A model generated the notes under the pieces. It was not told the DNA's origin and searched no databases. It saw nothing but the letters and a program-made list of their open reading frames with translations. The position numbers were made by a program, and so were the translations under genes. Below, one piece after another: positions 3,855-39,717 of a stretch of DNA of 64,000 bases (positions are counted from its first letter, which is position 1; each line of letters opens with the position of its first letter). This DNA comes from an uncultured Pseudomonadales bacterium (lineage in GTDB: Bacteria > Pseudomonadota > Gammaproteobacteria > Pseudomonadales > Porticoccaceae), in the NCBI GenBank assembly GCA_943789145.1, contig CALSSZ010000008.1:5433-69432 (forward strand), written 5' to 3'.

Positions 3855-4874
3855 ATGGCATATGGACGTCTGATGCTGGATCTGGCTGGCACTGAACTGA
3901 CAGCAGCAGAGCAGCAATTATTGCACAGCCCTCAGGTGGGCGGCGTTATTCTGTTTGCCCGCAATATTCAGAGTCGCGAGCAGGTGACTGCGCTCAATGC
4001 CCAGATTCGCCAGGCCTCAGATCACCTGTTGATTGCAGTTGACCAGGAGGGAGGCCGTGTGCAGCGCTTGCGTCAGGGCTTTACCCCATTTCCGCCAATG
4101 CAGGCGCTGGGCGATGCTGTGGCTGAGAACCTGGAGGCAGGCATGCAGCTGGTGCGCGATACCGGCTGGCTAATGGCTTCTGAGGTGCTGGCCTGCGGCT
4201 TTGATATCAGCTTTGCCCCGGTATTGGATGTGGATAGAGATACCAGCAGTATTATTGGCGACCGGGCTTTTTCTGATAACCCCGAGTCGGTTGTTAAACT
4301 GGCGGGAGCCTTTATTGAGGGCATGCATGAAGCAGGCATGGCAGCCACGGGCAAACATTTTCCCGGTCATGGCGGCATTGTGGCCGACAGCCATCTGGAG
4401 GCACCTGTGGATTCCAGAAGCTGGCAGCAGGTAATGGACCACGACCTCAAACCCTTTGGCGCGCTGTCCAAACTGTTGGATGGGGTGATGCCCGCGCATA
4501 TTACCTTTCCCGCAATCGATCCAGATTCCGTGGGTTTCTCGCCTTTTTGGTTGCAGCAGGTACTCAGACAGCAGCTGGGCTTTGATGGGGTGATCTTTAG
4601 CGATGATCTGAGTATGAAGGGCGCAGATGTGGCCGGTGGCTACACTGATAAGGCACGGCTGGCACTGGATGCTGGTTGCGATATGATTCTGGTGTGCAAT
4701 TGCCCAGAGGGCGCCATGGAGGTGCTGGATATGATGGAGCGCCAGGCACTGGCAGGTTCTGATAGGATTGCCGCCATGCGCGGCGCACATTCTGTAGACT
4801 GGGACAGACTCTGCGCAGATCCCAGGCGCAATAAAATTATTCAACAACTCGAAGAAATAAGTCGGAGCAGGTAA
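3855..4874 (+). CDS. nagZ: beta-N-acetylhexosaminidase
   Basis: GH3 NagZ-like sequence (GGVILFARN, VDQEGGRVQR, KHFPGHG). Confidence 0.9.
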   Translation: MAYGRLMLDLAGTELTAAEQQLLHSPQVGGVILFARNIQSREQVTALNAQIRQASDHLLIAVDQEGGRVQRLRQGFTPFPPMQALGDAVAENLEAGMQLVRDTGWLMASEVLACGFDISFAPVLDVDRDTSSIIGDRAFSDNPESVVKLAGAFIEGMHEAGMAATGKHFPGHGGIVADSHLEAPVDSRSWQQVMDHDLKPFGALSKLLDGVMPAHITFPAIDPDSVGFSPFWLQQVLRQQLGFDGVIFSDDLSMKGADVAGGYTDKARLALDAGCDMILVCNCPEGAMEVLDMMERQALAGSDRIAAMRGAHSVDWDRLCADPRRNKIIQQLEEISRSR

Positions 4875-4879
4875 TCATT

Positions 4880-5974
4880 ATGAATGCGATCGAAAATTGG
4901 TTTGTCAGCTTGGCTGGTGCTGACAACCTATGGATAGTCAATCTGTTTATTATTGTTCTCGCGGCCCTCACCGCGGGCTATATTCTCAATAAAATTATTG
5001 ACCGTCTGGAACTTCATGCCGAGAAGTCAAAAACGGTGTGGGATGACGCCTTTATCGAGGCCTGCCGCAAGCCAGCGATCTGGCTGGTATGGATTCTTGG
5101 AGTTAATTTTGCCGCCAGTGTAGCGGCGCAAAAAATGGGCTCGCCCCTGCAGAACCTGATTGACCCGATAAATCGCCTGGCGGTGATATTTCTGGGTGCG
5201 CTGTTTGTAAATAACTTTATCAAGCGCGCCGAACGCAACCTGGTGCACCCGGACTATATAGCCAAGCCTATGGATACAACCACAGTTATTGCTATAGGCA
5301 AGCTGCTGCGCGCCTCGGTGATAATCACCGCCATACTGGTGGCTCTGCAGCTGTTTGGTTACAGCATTTCGGGGCTGCTGGCCTTTGGTGGTATAGGGGG
5401 CATTGCAGTGGGCTTTGCGGCAAAAGATCTGTTGGCCAACTTTTTTGGTGGCCTGATGATCTATCTGGACCGTCCATTCTCTGTGGGAGACTGGGTACGC
5501 TCGCCGGATAAAGAAATTGAGGGAACTGTAGAGGATATAGGTTGGCGGTTGACCCGCATAAGAACCTTCGACAAGCGGCCCCTGTATATCCCCAATTCAG
5601 CCTTTGCCAGTATCTCTGTGGAGAATCCCTCTCGCATGAGTAACCGCCGCATCTACGAGACTGTGGGAATTCGCTACGCGGATATCAATGCTATGGACTC
5701 TATAATAGATCAGGTGACCGCCATGCTGATGGAGCATCCGGAGATTGATACCCAGCAGACAATGATCGTCAACTTTAATCGCTTCTCAGAGAGCTCTCTG
5801 GACTTTTTTATCTACACCTTTACCAAGACCACTGACTGGATTCTGTTCCACAAAATCAAGCAGGATATATTGCTTAGAGTGGCGGCGATTATTGAGGCCA
5901 ATCAGGCAGAAATTGCCTTTCCAACATCTACATTACATATTGAAGGGCAGGATGATCTACTGGCTGGAGAGTAG
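4880..5974 (+). CDS. mechanosensitive ion channel family protein (MscS-like)
   Basis: TM segments followed by an MscS beta-domain motif (PFSVGDWV...IEGTVEDIGWRLTRIRTFDKRPLYIPNS). Confidence 0.85.
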   Translation: MNAIENWFVSLAGADNLWIVNLFIIVLAALTAGYILNKIIDRLELHAEKSKTVWDDAFIEACRKPAIWLVWILGVNFAASVAAQKMGSPLQNLIDPINRLAVIFLGALFVNNFIKRAERNLVHPDYIAKPMDTTTVIAIGKLLRASVIITAILVALQLFGYSISGLLAFGGIGGIAVGFAAKDLLANFFGGLMIYLDRPFSVGDWVRSPDKEIEGTVEDIGWRLTRIRTFDKRPLYIPNSAFASISVENPSRMSNRRIYETVGIRYADINAMDSIIDQVTAMLMEHPEIDTQQTMIVNFNRFSESSLDFFIYTFTKTTDWILFHKIKQDILLRVAAIIEANQAEIAFPTSTLHIEGQDDLLAGE

Positions 5975-32852: not shown

Positions 32853-35714
32853 ATGTTACAAAAGAAACGCACCTTCGCCGACCTGGAGAATGCCGCAGAG
32901 TTTGTGGCCCGTCATATTGGTCCTAGTGCAGACGAGCAACAGGCCATGCTGGCGGCACTGGGCTGCAGTAATCTGGCCGAACTGACCACTCAGGTAGTGC
33001 CCGAAGCTATTGCTATGACCGAGGCGCTGGATATTGTTGATAGCTGTACCGAGGTGCAGGCGCTGGCCGAGTTGCGGCAGATGGCCGAGCTTAATCAGGT
33101 ATTTAAAAACTATATAGGTCAGGGTTATTACGGCACCATCACACCCAATGTAATTCAGCGCAATATCCTGGAAAACCCCGCCTGGTACACCGCCTATACT
33201 CCCTATCAGCCAGAGATTTCTCAAGGACGTCTGGAAGCGCTGATTAATTTCCAGACCATGATCACAGACCTCACGGGTATGGAGATGGCCAATGCCTCCA
33301 TGCTCGACGAGGGCACTGCCGCGGCCGAAGCCATGGCCCTGTGCCAGCGCATGTCCAAATCAAAATCCACACGCTTTTTAGTCGATGCCGACTGTCTGCC
33401 CCAGACCATTGAGGTTATTAAAACCCGCGCCGAGCCTATGGGCATTGATGTGTTAGTGGGCGAGCCAGATCAATTTGAGGGCGAGGCCTTTGGCGCTCTG
33501 CTGCAGTATCCTGGGGCCAGTGGCGAGGTAAGAGATTACCGGGATATTATTCAGCATATTCAGGACAATAAGGGCCTGGTAGTAATGGCAGCCGATATTC
33601 TTAGCCTGGTAATGCTTGAGTCTCCCGGCACCCTGGGTGCCGATGTGGCTATTGGTTCAACCCAGCGCTTTGGTGTGCCTCTGGGTTACGGCGGCCCCCA
33701 TGCTGGTTATATGGCTACTCGCGAAGCCTATAAGCGCAACCTGCCGGGCCGACTGGTGGGTCTTTCTCAGGACGCTAATGGTGAGCCGGCCTACAGATTG
33801 GCTCTGCAGACTCGCGAGCAACATATTCGCCGAGAGAAGGCGACTTCTAATATTTGCACAGCCCAGGTTCTGCTGGCGGTAATTGCCAGTATGTATGCTG
33901 TCTATCATGGCCCCGGAGGACTTAAGCGTATAGCCCAGCGTGTGCATCTGCTGACCTCGGTGCTGGCGGAAGGCTTGAGACAACATGATTTGGCAGCGGT
34001 TAATAACAGCTGGTTTGATACATTGACTCTTAACACAGGGGATAAAACCGCGGCGCTGATTAAAGCCGCCCAGAAGCAAAAGATTAATCTGCGCCAGATC
34101 GATGCCCATACCATTGGCCTGTCGCTGGATGAAACCACTGGTGCAGATGATGTGGTTGCACTCTGGGATATTTTGCTCGGCAGCCATAATCTGGATGTAG
34201 ATGCACTTTTGGAAGCAGAGGCCGAAGGCTTGCCGGGCAACCTGATCCGCAAGGATAGCTTTCTGACCCACCCGACCTTTAGTCGCTATCATTCAGAGAC
34301 CGAGATGCTGCGTTATCTGCGCAAGTTGTCAGATAAAGATATAGCCCTGGATCGCGCCATGATACCCCTTGGTTCCTGCACCATGAAACTGAATGCCACA
34401 GCAGAAATGCTGCCAATTACCTGGCCCGAGTTTGCCAATATCCACCCCTTTGCCCCAGCCGAGCAGACCACAGGCTATCGCGCCATGATCGATGATCTGG
34501 AATCTATGCTCTGCGCCTCGACTGGCTATGACGCCATGTCACTGCAGCCCAATGCCGGATCCCAGGGCGAGTATGCCGGACTGCTGGCTATTCGTGGCTA
34601 CCATGAAAGCCGCGGCGACACAGAGCGCAATATCTGCCTGATACCCAGTTCAGCTCATGGCACCAACCCTGCATCGGCACAGATGTGTGGTATGGCTGTG
34701 GTGGTAGTTAAGTGCGATGAACAGGGCAATGTGGATGTGGATGATCTCAGAGCCAAAGCGGCAGCCCATGCGGATAATCTGGCAGCCATTATGGTGACTT
34801 ACCCCTCGACCCATGGCGTGTTCGAAGAGCGTATTACCGAGATTTGCGACATTGTGCATAACCATGGAGGTCAGGTATATATAGATGGCGCTAACCTCAA
34901 TGCCATGGTGGGTCTGTGTCAGCCTGGCAAATTTGGTGGCGATGTGTCGCACCTTAATTTGCACAAAACATTCTGTATTCCCCATGGCGGAGGCGGCCCA
35001 GGTGTGGGCCCCATCGGTGTAGGCGAACATCTGGCGCCATTTCTGCCCAGAGAGTCAGCAGATGGCAGCCGTCAGGGCGCGCAGGTTTCTGCCGCTCCCT
35101 ATGGTAGCGCCAGTATTCTGCCCATTACCTGGATGTATATTCGCATGATGGGCCGCGCTGGACTTAAGCAGGCCACAGAGGTAGCCATACTCAATGCCAA
35201 CTATATGGCCCATCGCCTGCAGAACCATTATCAGGTGCTGTATACCGGCAGCAAAGGCCGTGTAGCCCACGAATGTATTCTTGATGTGCGGCCGATTAAA
35301 GATGAGATAGGCATTAGTGTTGATGATATAGCCAAGCGACTGATCGACTTTGGCTTTCATGCACCAACCATGTCATTCCCAGTGGCTGGTACATTGATGA
35401 TTGAGCCTACAGAGAGCGAGTCAAAAACCGAGCTTGATCGTTTCTGTGATGCAATGATTGCTATCAAACAGGAGATTGATCAGGTGGCCAGCGGCAAGTT
35501 CACTGTGGACAACAACCCCCTGGCAGGCGCCCCTCATACAGCCGCTATGGTCAGTGCCGACCAGTGGTCGCGGGCTTATAGTCGCAGCCAGGCAGCCTAT
35601 CCGCTGGAGTCATTGCGTTACAGTAAATATTGGCCACCAGTAGGGCGCCTGGATCATGTATTTGGCGACCGCAATCTGGTGTGTTCATGCCCGTCGATAG
35701 CAGATTACGAATAG
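32853..35714 (+). CDS. gcvP: glycine dehydrogenase (decarboxylating), P protein
   Basis: 953 aa. FVARHIGP N-terminus and PLP region. ATG 32853 after GGAG. Confidence 0.95.
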
Positions 35715-36998
35715 TCTGCTGTTGCCGGCTGTTCCGAGGAATCGTCTGCCACTGGCTCCCTAGGTGGGTATTCTGAGCTGAGGTGTTTGTGCAGATCCAC
35801 AGCACTGTAGACCTTGACCGGCTCAGAAAAGCCCTTAATGGCTATCTCGCCCTTATTTATGCAATGGATAGAGTCTCGAACCAGCCCATAAGTATCCTCA
35901 GATAGCAAAATCTCATTGCTATCGGCAGAGGATTCCAAACGGCTGGCCAGATTGACCGCGCGGCCCAGCAAGGTGTAGTCCAGACGATTTTCAGTGCCAA
36001 AGTTGCCCACTTTGCAGACCCCGCTATTAATACCCATACGCAGGCCAGCGGGGCGCTCTATGCCCTCAGCCTGCTAAGCGCAGCTGCAATTCCTGCATAG
36101 CCTTTCTCATGGCAATGGCCATAGACACACAGCGCACTGCATCGGACCTTACACCGCGGCGTTCAGGGTCACCAAAGAACACCATAATCGAATCGCCAAT
36201 CACCTTGTCAACGGTGCCGCCAAAGCGAAATGCGATTTCAGACATCACGGTTAAATAGCTATTCAGCAGAGAAGTAAGCTGCTCAGGGTCGAGCTTTTCC
36301 GCCAGTCGGGTAAAGCCCTCCATATCAGAGAAGAAAATAGTCAGCGCCTTCTCCTGAGTCTCGGCACGCACATCCTTACCCGTCAGAATCGCTTTGCGCA
36401 GTGGCGGTGACAGATACTTAGATAACCTAAAGGTACGCAGGGTCAGCCATTCATTTTGCCTGAGCACAGAATCATGCTGTTCAGCCAGCATAGAATGGGT
36501 GCGCCGCGCTATATTGGCCAGCAACAGACAGTAGCCAGCCACCAACAGCAGAATCAGCAGCTGAGCCTGAAAACCAGGGATAACACTGATTGGCGACAGC
36601 CAGTATACAATCAGCGCACCGATAAAGAGCCCAAACAAATCCAGAGGCGCGGTGGCCTTTAAAGGGCTTATAACAGTGATAAGAAACCCAAGCCCCAGGG
36701 CAATAGTCAGCAGAGGATCAAAGCCCACAAAGGCCAATAACATCCCGGTGAGAACCCCGTCGATAAACTCCAGCAACAGGGCAAGACGCTGCCGCACTCG
36801 TTGCTTAGGCGAAGCCATAGCCGTGAAATAACAGCTAAATTGATAGATAAACAGAGCCGGCAGCAAAACCAGCAGAGCAGGGTGATAGCCAATAACCCCC
36901 CAGGCCCCCAGCAAAATAATAACCCCGCAGAGCCCCAGAGTCAGCCGATATAGCTCCTGCAGTTTCGGTGACGGATATACAATCTCTTTCCATGTCAT
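35705..36998 (-). pseudogene. membrane-anchored class III adenylate/guanylate cyclase, split by one frameshift
   Basis: ORF 36066-36998 carries 6 TM plus FFSDMEGFTRL...GDSIMVFFG. ORF 35705-36037 continues with RMGINSG...NLASRLES. The reading frame changes at about 36060-36075. Confidence 0.8.
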
Positions 36999-37188: not shown

Positions 37189-37279
37189 GGTGAGGTGTCC
37201 GAGTGGCTGAAGGAGCACGCCTGGAAAGTGTGTAAGCGTTAATAGCGTTTCGAGGGTTCGAATCCCTCTCTCACCGCCA
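37189..37279 (+). tRNA. tRNA-Ser (anticodon GGA)
   Basis: Cloverleaf can be folded by hand: acceptor GGTGAGG/TCTCACC, anticodon loop CTGGAAA, long variable arm, T-arm GAGGGTTCGAATCCCTC, and an encoded CCA. Confidence 0.95.
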
Positions 37280-37287
37280 CGCATTAG

Positions 37288-37322
37288 AGCCCCAGTAACT
37301 ATAGAGTTTCTGGGGCTTTTTT
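37288..37322 (+). terminator. rho-independent terminator after tRNA-Ser
   Basis: AGCCCCAG ... CTGGGGCT stem followed by a T6 run. Confidence 0.75.
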
Positions 37323-37475
37323 ATGCCTGCTTTGTAGCAAATCTTTTTAGCAATATTATCTTCTAATCATTCTGATTCAGTCCGCTGAGTGTTTGTTATT
37401 GTTACTGGGGAGATTCTTTACAAACTAACTTTAAAAGCTCGATTGCTATTTACCTTGACAACAACTTAACTTTGT

Positions 37476-37492
37476 ATACCCTATGGGGGTAT
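37476..37492. promoter_or_regulatory. candidate CsoR-family operator
   Basis: ATACCC-TATGG-GGGTAT inverted repeat with a G/C tract and AT flanks. It lies 15 nt downstream of a TTGACA hexamer (37455-37460) and overlaps the ATG of the first operon gene. Confidence 0.55.
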
Positions 37493-38090
37493 GAAAGCGC
37501 TGATCATTATTCTCTCTCTGCTGGTCGCCTCAACCTCAATGAGCCGACCCATCTCCTATGTGGGAGGCCATACCTTAATGGCCAACTCCGGGGCACAGTC
37601 AGATAATATCTACTGGCACTACACGCCCAGCATCAAGTACTCATTAGGCTTGGATTACCAAAAAGATAAAATCAGTGGTGAGGCGTTTCCCTCAGCCAGA
37701 TTGACCTATCTGATCAACCGCAAGAATACCGCTACCTCTCAGCGCAACCTGTACGTAAAAACCGGCTTTGGGCTCGATAGTAGTGACAACCACTTTTATT
37801 CCCTCAGTGGTGACTGGGAGACTCGGCGCCTGTTCGGCGGTTTCTCCGCTAAACAGGTCTCAGGCATTGGCTATGACCTTTTTGAGCAGAGAGTAAAACT
37901 GGGGGTAGCCCCCTATCTGGGTGCCTACGGCGACCTGCATACCTGGTTGATGATTGAGAGCAAAAAAGATGACTTGGACAACAAACGCATCACCTACCCT
38001 GTGCTGCGGTTTTTTAAAGGTGGTGGCTTGATTGAATTCAGCTACCACAAAAAAACCGACTGGGATATTCACCTGATGTATAGATTCTGA
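37491..38090 (+). CDS. small secreted protein, probable outer-membrane beta-barrel
   Basis: Signal peptide MKALIIILSLLVASTSMS, alternating amphipathic strands, and a C-terminal ...HLMYRF (aromatic terminus as in the OMP beta-signal). Confidence 0.5.
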   Translation: MKALIIILSLLVASTSMSRPISYVGGHTLMANSGAQSDNIYWHYTPSIKYSLGLDYQKDKISGEAFPSARLTYLINRKNTATSQRNLYVKTGFGLDSSDNHFYSLSGDWETRRLFGGFSAKQVSGIGYDLFEQRVKLGVAPYLGAYGDLHTWLMIESKKDDLDNKRITYPVLRFFKGGGLIEFSYHKKTDWDIHLMYRF

Positions 38091-38106
38091 TAAAGGATGG
38101 ACCATT

Positions 38107-38514
38107 ATGAATAAATTCTTACTGGCAACATTATTGCTGACCGCAACAGCAACCCAGGCCGCCCACCATGAAATGGGCCATATGCATTCCCATGAAGGCC
38201 ATGTCCACGACACCATGGTCGATGGCCAAAAGCTCAGCGTGGATGCCGAGCGTTTCGATAACTTTGTTAACGCCGTTCCCGGGGATCAAGTAGTGGTGAT
38301 CAGTGTTCAGGGCATGGTCTGTGACTTCTGTGCCCGCGGTATTGAAAAGACCTTTGGCAAAGACAGCGCTGTGACCAAAATAGATGTAGATCTGGCCTCA
38401 GGAAAAGTCCTGCTGGCCTACGCCCCAGAGACAGAAATAAACCGCGCTGGCATTGAGCAAAATATTCTTAACAACGGCCTTAACACCACGGCCATCCAGT
38501 TGGTAGGCAAATAA
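38107..38514 (+). CDS. periplasmic heavy-metal-associated (HMA, MerP/CopZ-like) protein with a His/Met-rich N-terminus
   Basis: Signal peptide ending TQA, then AHHEMGHMHSHEGHVH, then an HMA motif GMVCDFC. Confidence 0.75.
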   Translation: MNKFLLATLLLTATATQAAHHEMGHMHSHEGHVHDTMVDGQKLSVDAERFDNFVNAVPGDQVVVISVQGMVCDFCARGIEKTFGKDSAVTKIDVDLASGKVLLAYAPETEINRAGIEQNILNNGLNTTAIQLVGK

Positions 38515-38515
38515 T

Positions 38516-38881
38516 ATGCAAGACAGAGCGGCCAATTTCTTTTCACTATTCGCCTCTACTTCGACATTGATCTGCTGCGCTCTGCCCGCACTTTTTGTCG
38601 CCGTGGGCGCTGGGGCCAGCTTTGCCAGTCTGCTGGGCGTATTCCCCTTTTTGATTGTGCTGTCCCAATACAAAATCGCCATTAGCCTGTTTGCCTTGGT
38701 AATGATTGTGGTGGCCGGTGTGGTCAACTATAAAACAGCCAGAATGCCATGCCCTGCTGACCCGGAGTTGGGTCGCGCCTGCTTGCGAACGAGGCAGCGC
38801 TCACGAAGGATTTATACTGCATCCACAGGCATCTTTATCTGCGCCAGCATTTTCACCTACATAGCGCCCAAATTTATCTAA
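38516..38881 (+). CDS. MerT-like 3-TM metal transport protein
   Basis: 121 aa. TM1 LICCALPALFVAVG (compare MerT ACCLGPLVLIALG as I recall it), loop Cys pair PCPADPELGRAC after TM2, and a third TM. Layout and length match MerT. Confidence 0.6.
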   Translation: MQDRAANFFSLFASTSTLICCALPALFVAVGAGASFASLLGVFPFLIVLSQYKIAISLFALVMIVVAGVVNYKTARMPCPADPELGRACLRTRQRSRRIYTASTGIFICASIFTYIAPKFI

Positions 38882-38890
38882 GGAGAGGCC

Positions 38891-39154
38891 ATGACACATT
38901 CCTGCCACAAAAAGTTAATTCCCAATATCAATCGTATTTCCGGGCAGATTAATGGTATTGGCAAAATGGTTAATGAGGGTCAGTACTGCATCGATATCCT
39001 CAATCAGCTTAAAGCCGCCAAATCAGCCATAGCCACAGTTGAGGCAAAGATACTGGACAAGCATATTGAAGAATGTATCAGAGATTCCCTGCAGAGCCAG
39101 GATCAGATCGATATCAAAATCGCTGAATTAGTAAAAGTACTCAAGCGAGCCTAG
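38891..39154 (+). CDS. CsoR/RcnR/FrmR-family metal-sensing transcriptional repressor
   Basis: 87 aa. Motif RISGQINGIGKMV...YCIDILNQL.A...A. C33-H58-C62 has the 25/4 spacing I recall for the CsoR Cu(I) ligands. His3 is also present. Confidence 0.8.
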   Translation: MTHSCHKKLIPNINRISGQINGIGKMVNEGQYCIDILNQLKAAKSAIATVEAKILDKHIEECIRDSLQSQDQIDIKIAELVKVLKRA

Positions 39155-39168
39155 GGCAGGTGTTATTC

Positions 39169-39564
39169 CTACGCTTCCGAATCTACCTTCCATCGGACCA
39201 AGTTTTTCGCTTTAATTCTGTTGGTAAACAGCTTGTATCTGCTTTGCTCGGACTGCCACTCAGCTAACCACTGTGCACCCGTGCGCTCCGCATCGATAAA
39301 AACTGCATTGGTAATCATAATAGGAATTAAGATAGTCAGGTGGACAACGACACTTGTTATGGTGCTATACCCTAGCCAGCCAATGTAATAGGTAGCTATA
39401 AAACCAAATGTTATGCTCCAAATTGTAAACAACACAAGCATGAAATAGGACTGTAGCGTGTTATCTGGAATATGCTTCAATGGATTGAACTTCACGTTCA
39501 TCACGCGTCTCCAGATGTGCACAACTCGCATTATTAATCTTCTTAAAATGTTTGGCTTATCCAT
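39169..39564 (-). CDS. small 2-TM membrane protein, unknown function
   Basis: Start chosen at MDKPNIL (cat 39562-39564) with GGAG 7 nt upstream. AT-rich gene. Confidence 0.45.
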   Translation of the reverse strand: MDKPNILRRLIMRVVHIWRRVMNVKFNPLKHIPDNTLQSYFMLVLFTIWSITFGFIATYYIGWLGYSTITSVVVHLTILIPIMITNAVFIDAERTGAQWLAEWQSEQSRYKLFTNRIKAKNLVRWKVDSEA

Positions 39565-39717
39565 GTAACGTCTCCATAGTGAAAGTATATTTATATTTTG
39601 CCTTAGCAAATACTGGTTAAACAATATCATGAAAGACCTATGAAAGCAGTCTACCCTTTTTTAGGGAACGGTAGAGGCTGCTGAGCGATTTTTGCTGTAT
39701 CTGTGGCTAGTCCGGTT

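Follow-up and report, generated by a model that had tools for sequence, protein, structure and literature searches.

A conserved CsoR-regulated cassette of an outer membrane barrel, an exported HMA protein, and a MerT-like membrane protein as a candidate pump-free copper relay

The 64,000-nucleotide stretch of contig CALSSZ010000008.1 analyzed here (the window), from an uncultured bacterium of the Porticoccaceae, contains a four-gene operon on the forward strand (37491-39154). Its genes encode, in order, a predicted outer membrane beta-barrel, a periplasmic HMA protein, a three-transmembrane (3-TM) protein remotely related to the mercury carrier MerT, and a CsoR-family repressor. We refer to the four genes as the cassette and to the first three as the trio. 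The arrangement is not a product of chance, as both the gene order and a CsoR-type operator recur across related loci. We regard the cassette as a thiol-relay metal module that is placed under a CsoR switch and extended by a new outer membrane component, functionally similar to merTP and distantly homologous to it. Our tentative proposal is that it is induced by metal excess and relays Cu(I) across the envelope through thiols and His/Met residues without a pump. We infer the identity of the metal, the direction of transport, and the physiological role, and the latter two are the weakest parts of the proposal. A preliminary description of this DNA, made from the sequence alone, knew of no system with this composition, and full-text literature searches, which do not cover all journals, likewise found no published description of the cassette. 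One apparent match (PMC6304351) was rejected as a false match within a reference list.

Predicted open reading frame (ORF) coordinates confirm the tight packing of the four genes that had been noted previously, with intergenic gaps of 16, 1, and 9 nt, and all of the motifs quoted at that time are present (Table 1). The genomic context considered here comprises the 64-kb window and related loci of ~14 kb. Hidden Markov models built for each part were run over 93 of these loci, and the order barrel-HMA-MerT-like-CsoR was found on one strand in 89 of them, the remainder being cut by contig ends. The survey for an omp-merP-merT-csoR order that the preliminary description had proposed is thereby answered in the affirmative. 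The gene 3 family comprises 777 cluster representatives at 90% identity, and the cassette or its MerT-like protein is present in at least 463 species-level GTDB genomes. The hosts include SAR86, Porticoccaceae/SAR92, OM182, K189A, and Cellvibrionales, as well as the alphaproteobacterial IMCC14465, Parvibaculaceae, and Rhodobacteraceae metagenome-assembled genomes. The nearest relatives of the window proteins (94 to 95% identical) bear names of the SAR92 clade (Porticoccaceae), and cassette proteins are 65 to 95% identical across Gammaproteobacteria and Alphaproteobacteria. Clustering of all neighbors shows that the genes flanking the cassette vary by lineage.

The last gene of the operon provides the clearest family assignment. 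Residues 6 to 86 of its 87-residue product match Trns_repr_metal (PF02583) with an E value of 2.3e-24 and 86 bits (cut-off, 22.8), and the residues His3, Cys33, His58, and Cys62, on which a CsoR-family repressor had been proposed, are all present. The closest solved structures are CsoR of S. lividans (6e-14) and Geobacillus (1e-11), followed by InrS (2e-10) and FrmR (2.5e-6). The FrmR model in NCBIfam matches at 2.8e-10, and the best matches overall are Cu sensors and RicR. In the alignment, the YCIDIL motif is identical in Cu(I)-CsoRs and C33, H58, and C62 occupy their ligand positions, which reproduces the x-C-H-C signature of the Cu(I)-CsoR subgroup with its C...25...H...4...C spacing. These three residues and Y32 are essentially invariant in the 93 cassette homologs (Y32 in at least 95%). 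The allosteric network of CsoR in M. tuberculosis and B. subtilis involves a second-shell Tyr beside the Cys ligand and a C-terminal Glu; E79 of gene 4 is a candidate for this Glu, in a register that is one residue off. The N-terminal M-x-H-P-C-H (residues 1 to 7, 38891-38911) is untypical of classical Cu CsoRs and is also conserved among the 93 homologs, with H6 at 97%, C5 above 80%, and H3 at 50 to 80%. It could supply a fourth ligand and thereby affect metal selectivity.

A non-metal signal of the CstR/FrmR type had also been considered. Under this explanation, the repressor would sense persulfides or aldehydes, and the operon products would deal with reactive sulfur or carbonyl species. 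The CsoR family does include such sensors, FrmR is a detectable relative at the E values given above, and Cys5 near the N terminus could act as a second reactive thiol. However, gene 4 retains His58, Tyr32, and the full C-H-C triad, and the three structural genes are all of metal-handling types (HMA, MerT-like, and a barrel with predicted lumen His/Met residues). In addition, the neighbors of the cassette in related loci include no sulfurtransferase, persulfide dioxygenase, or dehydrogenase. With these residues retained and metal binders as partner proteins, we consider a non-metal signal highly improbable.

The repressor is matched by a candidate binding site directly in front of gene 1. A scan for ATACCC-N5-GGGTAT with at most one mismatch returned positions 37476-37492 as the sole match in the window, where ~0.13 matches are expected by chance, and the same operator occupies a fixed position in 85 of the 91 CsoR-carrying loci, with the rest truncated, masked, or one-base variants. 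It is absent from the cassette variants that lack CsoR and has nearly no second copy within the ~14-kb loci. These observations bear out the earlier assignment of this repeat as a CsoR-type operator, as judged from its pattern and conservation. The repeat extends over the likely -10 element and two bases into the gene 1 start codon, consistent with the GC-tract inverted repeats that overlap regulated promoters in the CsoR family. The putative -35 and -10 hexamers are separated by 16 nt, and the gene 1 ATG lies 9 nt downstream of the -10 hexamer. TTGACA is kept at an equal distance in the SAR92 relatives L014 and L015, while SAR86-type loci have TAATAT 7 nt before the gene 1 ATG (e.g., L005:4940-4980). 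In both SAR92-type and SAR86-type loci, the gene 1 start codon lies inside the CsoR operator and no Shine-Dalgarno sequence is present. A consensus promoter scan did not report 37455-37482 and the -10 hexamer is weak; the promoter is proposed from conservation and geometry. The geometry shared with relatives supports the view that the operator spans -10 to +1 and that the cassette mRNA would be leaderless or nearly so.

Gene 2 encodes a protein with a signal peptide ending in TQA, followed by AHHEMGHMHSHEGHVH as the mature N terminus and, further on, by the motif GMVCDFC. It matches the HMA model PF00403 (E = 6.6e-6; 26.9 bits, cut-off 24.8) with the GMxCxxC site present. Across 92 homologs, GMVCDFCARGIEKTF, which contains GMVCDFC, is invariant, and the family N terminus is a conserved His-rich, Met-containing segment with the motif HSHEGHxH (consensus, MMHHSHEGHLHETMVDG). 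The previous assignment of a periplasmic HMA protein thus stands, and its description as MerP/CopZ type needs refining. The protein is nearer to CopZ than to MerP and lies below both cut-offs, scoring 37.9 bits against the NCBIfam model CopZ_Bs (NF033795; cut-off, 91) and 20.1 bits against MerP (TIGR02052; cut-off, 92.6), and it belongs to neither equivalog.

By its profile similarity, gene 3 is a remote member of the MerT superfamily and not a bona fide MerT. The 121-residue protein of the window does not match any Pfam or NCBIfam MerT model even at an E value of ≤1, and 18 of its 26 close homologs match PF02411 only weakly, under the gathering score (best E = 1.3e-5). We compared the gene 3 family with authentic MerT sequences from annotated plasmid mer operons (loci L093-L095), in which the order is merR-merT-merP(-merA). 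The hhalign comparison gave a probability of 92.7% and an E value of 4.2e-7 over 106 columns that span MerT residues 8 to 115 of 116. The Cys-Cys pairs in TM1 align with each other, and C89 aligns with C82 of MerT. C20 and C21 in TM1 (LICCALPAL) and C79 and C89 in the loop before TM3 (PCPADPELGRAC) are invariant among gene 3 homologs, and this loop is Arg-rich and hence cytoplasmic by the positive-inside rule. The MerT layout and size reported previously are thus upheld in the three TM helices, the two Cys pairs, and the full-length, colinear similarity. They are not upheld at the level of the PF02411 and NCBIfam MerT and MerTP thresholds, nor in the loop pair, which is C-x9-C in gene 3 versus C-x5-C in MerT. 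Linkage to MerR and MerA, as in mer operons, was found neither in the window nor among the neighbors in the 93 loci. The AlphaFold2 (AF2) model of gene 3, which has low confidence (pLDDT 62), contains three long helices, and Foldseek against the PDB returned nothing below an E value of 3, leaving structure neutral on the MerT assignment.

The two invariant Cys pairs of gene 3, one at each side of the membrane, also invite a redox explanation. The MerT-like protein would shuttle reducing equivalents, as CcdA, DsbD, and ScsB do, and keep the CxxC of the HMA protein reduced, and the HMA protein would buffer periplasmic Cu(I) or pass it to the barrel for release. The exported CxxC protein indeed sits in an oxidizing compartment, the Scs system sets a precedent for copper tolerance through thiol redox chemistry, and a MauE/DoxX-type membrane protein adjoins one variant of the cassette. 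Such a conduit would also remove the paradox of metal-induced import discussed below and give the barrel an exit role. However, the homology of gene 3 is to the MerT metal carrier and not to CcdA or DsbD, MerP works in the periplasm without a dedicated reductase, and the cassette lacks a thioredoxin-fold partner. We therefore judge a redox conduit to be quite improbable.

Gene 1 represents a new family of predicted outer membrane barrels without a Pfam model. Neither the window protein nor 10 remote homologs matched any Pfam or NCBIfam family at an E value of ≤0.1, and sequence profiles place gene 1 in neither the KdgM/NanC porins nor the CopB/PcoB family. AF2 predicts a 12-stranded structure for the 199-residue protein (pLDDT 85; 27-sequence alignment), and the top Foldseek matches in the PDB, at TM-scores of ~0.5 to 0.6, are all outer membrane barrels with around 12 strands (invasin/intimin beta-domain, FapF, KdgM, and NanC). 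The protein begins with a hydrophobic leader or signal peptide and ends in ...LMYRF, of which M-Y-R-F is invariant among homologs. A signal peptide, a predicted all-beta barrel, and a C-terminal aromatic beta-signal are thus combined in one protein, and the confident prediction agrees with the outer membrane beta-barrel proposed beforehand. The label "small" does not hold, as the predicted 12 strands give it the size of KdgM/NanC rather than a minimal barrel. The family comprises 286 close homologs and 713 cluster representatives at 50% identity. All six of the conserved residues M30, H43, H150, M154, H194, and M196 fall on the lumen-side parity of the predicted strands, which also holds D108, E110, D192, and R198. 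The lipid and lumen faces were assigned through hydrophobic alternation along the predicted strands and not from model coordinates, and the lumen-facing His/Met residues are suggestive of a metal path.

The absence of a conventional detoxification enzyme, pump, or activator was also evaluated. A six-frame motif scan of the window found no P-type ATPase (DKTGT), multicopper oxidase (HCHxxxH), MerA, or second HMA motif, and neither profile searches nor the motif scan found a MerR helix-turn-helix. The earlier claim that the window holds no MerA, MerR, CopA, or multicopper oxidase is therefore sustained by motif and profile searches alike. In addition, none of these four recurs beside the cassette among 100+ related loci.

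The trio is not confined to loci with CsoR. Alphaproteobacteria, Rickettsiales, and other lineages have the barrel, HMA, and MerT-like genes in this order with neither CsoR nor the operator, and these MerT-like genes keep the CC and PCPxDP...C motifs. At the head of the CsoR-less trios is a small ORF for an exported Cys-rich product with a Pro-rich end (PPKRPPKHIS, PAPPRYPPKALI, or IDYPPQQIS). These leader ORFs match CopL_fam weakly and below the cut-off (E = 5e-4 and 2e-3). Their DUF2946 match is meaningless (E = 0.42), and we take their likeness to CruR, a copper-sensing upstream ORF of Bordetella (PMC9426467), to be one of architecture only. Two remote barrel homologs (P0338 and P0347) are annotated as single 360-residue proteins in which an N-terminal heavy-metal MerR-type regulator and an internal signal-peptide-like segment precede the barrel. 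The internal segment suggests that in each case gene calling has probably joined two neighboring genes. Their MerR-type parts score alike against the ZntR, CueR, MerR, and CadR models (~105 to 110 bits, all below the cut-off), and a metagenome scan with P0338 returned only one unrelated MerR locus. Downstream of the trio, one alphaproteobacterial-type variant carries genes for a DUF305 protein and a MauE-family membrane protein (L106:6484-7736). Both gene types recur in copper-related clusters.

The trio is thus wired to three types of regulators, namely CsoR, a heavy-metal MerR-type protein, and CopL/CruR-like leader ORFs. Its genes stay together while the regulators change, which indicates that the trio is a conserved functional unit. 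CsoR and heavy-metal MerR-type regulators both switch genes on at metal excess, which suggests that the trio is an excess-response module.

A further gene accompanies the cassette in 37 of the 93 loci. It encodes a PepSY_TM protein (219 to 222 residues, 2 TM helices; PF03929, E = 2.2e-8), and all 30 copies that lie downstream begin with a 4-nt overlap with the csoR stop codon (L001:6645-7304, L005:6626-7294, and 28 more). Two of its His residues, H9 and H177, lie next to the two TM helices and are 97% conserved. PepSY_TM metal reductases include FoxB, FpvG, and CrpH. Proteins of this family are heme-dependent reductases of ferrisiderophores in the periplasm, and for CrpH of Bordetella a role in copper reduction has been proposed (PMC13038864); PepSY_TM also stands with CruR at the head of copper operons (PMC9426467). 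A tblastn search found no PepSY_TM match in the window, and other Porticoccaceae loci also lack it. The previous statement that no reductase is present consequently applies to the window but not to the ~40% of related loci in which a coupled PepSY_TM protein is a putative heme metal reductase. The position held by PepSY_TM in relatives is occupied in the window by a convergent 153-residue ORF (39169-39630, reverse strand), whose product is putatively a membrane protein and matches no family significantly (DUF2937, E = 0.03).

The PepSY_TM partner and the leader ORFs bring up copper acquisition as an alternative. Under this explanation, Cu(II) would enter through the barrel, be reduced by PepSY_TM where this is present, bind the HMA protein as Cu(I), and be imported by the MerT-like protein for cuproenzymes, with the Bordetella TonB receptor plus CrpH and Rhodobacter CcoA as analogues. 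The invariable translational coupling of downstream PepSY_TM to csoR speaks for it, as CrpH-type proteins aid copper acquisition (PMC13038864), as does the resemblance of the CsoR-less leader ORFs to CruR, which turns import genes off in response to copper (PMC9426467). As oligotrophic ocean bacteria, the hosts live at extremely low free copper, and no efflux system or detoxifying enzyme is linked to the cassette in the window or in 100+ loci. However, acquisition requires a non-canonical CsoR logic, in which the metal acts as a co-repressor or only as a brake, while every characterized CsoR/RcnR member leaves DNA upon ligand binding (reviewed in PMC10141476). A ligand-released, autoregulated importer would also run into runaway positive feedback. 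Furthermore, the barrel homolog pairs with heavy-metal MerR-type activators that are induced at excess, the leader ORFs match CopL weakly (E = 5e-4 to 2e-3) and DUF2946 not significantly, and the window itself has no PepSY_TM. Weighing these points, we consider acquisition unlikely. We hold to be equally unlikely a broader claim that the trio, together with PepSY_TM where present, forms a complete trans-envelope copper route without ATP or TonB, widespread among the most abundant heterotrophs of the ocean, whose physiology breaks the usual rules, either as high-affinity acquisition under a CsoR-family protein for which the metal is a co-repressor or ceiling-limiter or as an outward, pump-free Cu(I) exit in which a MerT-fold relay replaces CopA/Cus in streamlined genomes.

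Copper is indicated as the metal by the signature residues of CsoR, the CopZ-like HMA domain with its His/Met tail, PepSY_TM, the CopL-like leader ORFs, and the DUF305 neighbor. The same relay could nevertheless serve Hg(II), Cd(II), Ag(I), Zn(II), Ni(II), or Co(II), with a sensor that is InrS/RcnR-like or broader, and in the case of mercury the PepSY_TM heme protein of relatives could replace MerA. The MerT/MerP architecture is, after all, the mercury paradigm. The conserved H3/C5/H6, the H-C-H-C pattern shared with InrS (2e-10), and the His-rich HSHEGHxH tail of gene 2 are compatible with another metal, as are MerR-type partners that score alike for ZntR, CueR, MerR, and CadR models and a ZnuD-like TonB receptor that neighbors the cassette in part of the SAR86 genomes. 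Against this, YCIDIL and the Tyr beside the Cys are hallmarks of Cu-CsoR at which InrS, RcnR, and FrmR differ, the best matches of gene 4 are Cu sensors and RicR, and gene 2 scores higher for CopZ than for MerP. Mercury, cadmium, and silver occur in the open ocean at femtomolar to picomolar levels, which is hard to square with a presence in at least 463 species, and the CopL-like, DUF305, and PepSY_TM neighbors all indicate copper. Another metal thus seems to us a rather poor prospect, somewhat less probable than acquisition.

We tentatively favor a pump-free Cu(I) relay induced by metal excess, which would operate as follows. At low metal, apo-CsoR on the ATACCC-N5-GGGTAT operator would cover the -10 element and the start codon and block transcription. 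Binding of Cu(I) at Cys33/His58/Cys62 would then release CsoR from the operator, in keeping with the mechanism of the family. The outer membrane barrel with its putative lumen-facing His/Met residues would serve as the first relay station, the periplasmic HMA protein would catch the metal through its His/Met-rich tail and CxxC, and the MerT-like protein would hand it from the Cys-Cys pair in TM1 to the cytoplasmic Cys pair. In relatives with PepSY_TM, the co-translated heme protein may first reduce Cu(II) to Cu(I). The net flow is likely inward, given the homology to the MerP-to-MerT transfer, the lack of an energized step in the relay, and a free cytoplasmic Cu(I) that is buffered far below the periplasmic level. 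The relay would thereby rid the periplasm of reactive Cu(I). In the thiol-buffered cytoplasm, the metal would meet sinks or pumps whose genes lie elsewhere and would strengthen the induction through CsoR.

Several observations weigh against this copper relay. The HSHEGHxH tail and the H-x-C-H at the N terminus of the repressor would also suit Ni, Co, Zn, or Cd, and the H-C-H-C pattern of gene 4 matches the Ni sensor InrS, its third-best structural relative. An importer and an outer membrane channel that are induced at metal excess seem counterproductive without a cytoplasmic sink, and none is linked to the cassette in the window or in 100+ loci. PepSY_TM partners and CruR-type leaders are known from copper-repressed acquisition systems, which have the opposite physiology (PMC13038864, PMC9426467). 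The lumen-facing His/Met assignment follows from strand alternation and not from coordinates, and the MerT-like model of gene 3 has low confidence (pLDDT 62) and no structural match. The preliminary description had already called metal-induced import paradoxical for a detoxification unit. The paradox is real insofar as no sink is linked; it is not without precedent, since merTP and copCD/pcoB within copper resistance operons are cases of metal-induced uptake.

Comparison with characterized systems places the cassette closest to MerT/MerP of Tn21/Tn501, with which it shares a periplasmic CxxC HMA protein, a 3-TM inner membrane protein of ~120 residues whose Cys pairs lie in TM1 (Cys-Cys) and in the cytoplasmic loop before TM3, gene adjacency, and full-length, colinear homology; mer is metal induced, as is proposed for the cassette. 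The cassette differs in its gene order (P then T, in contrast to T then P in mer), in its control by a CsoR repressor rather than a MerR activator, in the lack of MerA, in the extra 45-residue His/Met-rich N-terminal region of its HMA protein, and in a dedicated outer membrane barrel. The CsoR copper operons (M. tuberculosis cso, B. subtilis copZA, S. lividans, and T. thermophilus copZ-csoR-copA) share with it an autoregulated CsoR of the Y-C...H...C type, a GC-tract inverted repeat of the ATACCC...GGGTAT type over the promoter, and an HMA chaperone in the operon. In contrast to these operons, the cassette has no P1B-ATPase, exports its HMA protein instead of keeping it in the cytoplasm, resides in Gram-negative Gamma- and Alphaproteobacteria, has an H-P-C-H repressor N terminus, and holds a start codon within its operator.

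The CopB/CopC/CopD (PcoB/PcoC/PcoD) systems of plasmid-borne, copper-induced resistance operons also combine an outer membrane barrel, a periplasmic copper chaperone, and a small inner membrane importer, and they pose the same uptake paradox. However, the likeness is one of layout only, with no Pfam matches and no sequence relationship detected, and the cassette lacks the multicopper oxidase CopA/PcoA and uses the one-component CsoR in place of the two-component CopRS/PcoRS. The Bordetella CruR-CrtA-CrpH system resembles the relatives of the cassette in a PepSY_TM protein with conserved His residues, in Cys-rich, Pro-ended leaders of the CsoR-less variants, and in the combination of outer membrane entry with a putative cupric reductase (PMC9426467, PMC13038864). 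It differs in being copper repressed, in using a TonB-dependent receptor, and in having no HMA or MerT-like parts; moreover, the cassette-linked PepSY_TM is half-size (219 residues, 2 TM helices), and the window has neither PepSY_TM nor a leader ORF. Finally, the barrel resembles KdgM/NanC in its ~180 mature residues, predicted strand number, and TM-score of ~0.5 to 0.6. No sequence or Pfam relationship connects them, and KdgM/NanC are lined for acidic sugars, in contrast to the predicted lumen His/Met residues and metal-gene linkage of the cassette barrel.

Upstream, a tRNA-Ser(GGA) gene and a terminator-like hairpin separate the cassette from the preceding genes, which implies that it has its own promoter region. 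A genomic island at this tRNA-Ser is not supported, as the GC content of the cassette (0.47 to 0.52) is not distinct from that of its flanks. Further upstream, a gene for a membrane-anchored class III adenylate/guanylate cyclase (35705-36998, reverse strand) is broken by a frameshift near 36040-36070. Its first ORF (36066-36998) ends in ...LQLRLAG*, and the domain resumes in another frame (AEGIERPAGLRMGINSGVCKVGNFG) as ORF 35705-36037; the split gene is either a pseudogene or a sequencing error. In SAR86 locus L001 (4179-4871, reverse strand) and seven other SAR86 loci, a divergent gene encodes a 230-residue exported protein of no Pfam family whose mature N terminus, AAHHEEGEMHATMHENNF, resembles the His/Met tail of the HMA protein, and this divergent gene may share the regulatory region. 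Some SAR86 genomes (L034:47-2305 and 9 other loci) have, close to the cassette, a TonB-dependent receptor into which long HDEHEGEE(D/E)H repeats are inserted and which best matches the zinc-piracy receptor ZnuD, below the threshold. Neighboring TonB receptors were rejected as dedicated copper receptors and as parts of the unit, as none of the four tested reaches a copper-receptor model (one is ZnuD-like, below the threshold) and the neighbors vary between lineages.

Table 1. Features of the cassette, its boundaries, and the leader ORFs of CsoR-less relatives (window coordinates unless a locus is named)
Feature	Position	Strand	Basis
tRNA-Ser(GGA), upstream boundary	37189-37279	+	
Terminator-like hairpin after tRNA-Ser, upstream boundary	37288-37317	+	
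Putative -35 hexamer TTGACA	37455-37460	+	Direct reading; conserved spacing in relatives
CsoR-type operator, perfect inverted repeat ATACCC-TATGG-GGGTAT (ATACCCTATGGGGGTAT)	37476-37492	n/a	Pattern scan and conservation
Putative -10 hexamer TACCCT (TAnnnT), within left operator arm	37477-37482	+	Geometry
Gene 1, exported 199-aa predicted outer membrane beta-barrel	37491-38090	+	Structure prediction
Gene 2, 135-aa periplasmic HMA (CopZ/MerP-fold) protein	38107-38514	+	PF00403 match
Gene 3, 121-aa 3-TM MerT-superfamily membrane protein	38516-38881	+	Remote profile homology
Gene 4, 87-aa CsoR-family repressor, last gene of operon	38891-39154	+	PF02583 match
Leader ORFs	L096:4561-4959, L098:4606-4944, L100 (about 4590-4940), L102:1340-1657, L106:4532-4915		Pro-rich ends

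SAR86 and SAR92/Porticoccaceae are among the most abundant heterotrophs of the surface ocean, where copper is in short supply as a cofactor and yet toxic close to ambient levels. In hundreds of species, such streamlined genomes preserve the cassette nearly unchanged, together with its operator. If our proposal is correct, these bacteria would possess an undescribed way of handling copper over both membranes with three small proteins and no energized transporter, the thiol-relay principle of MerT/MerP would extend beyond mercury, and a new outer membrane barrel family of several hundred sequence clusters would gain a function. The occurrence of one trio under three types of regulators is a natural experiment in coupling a transport module to different sensing logics, and in metatranscriptomes from the ocean the cassette could be used to trace copper stress.

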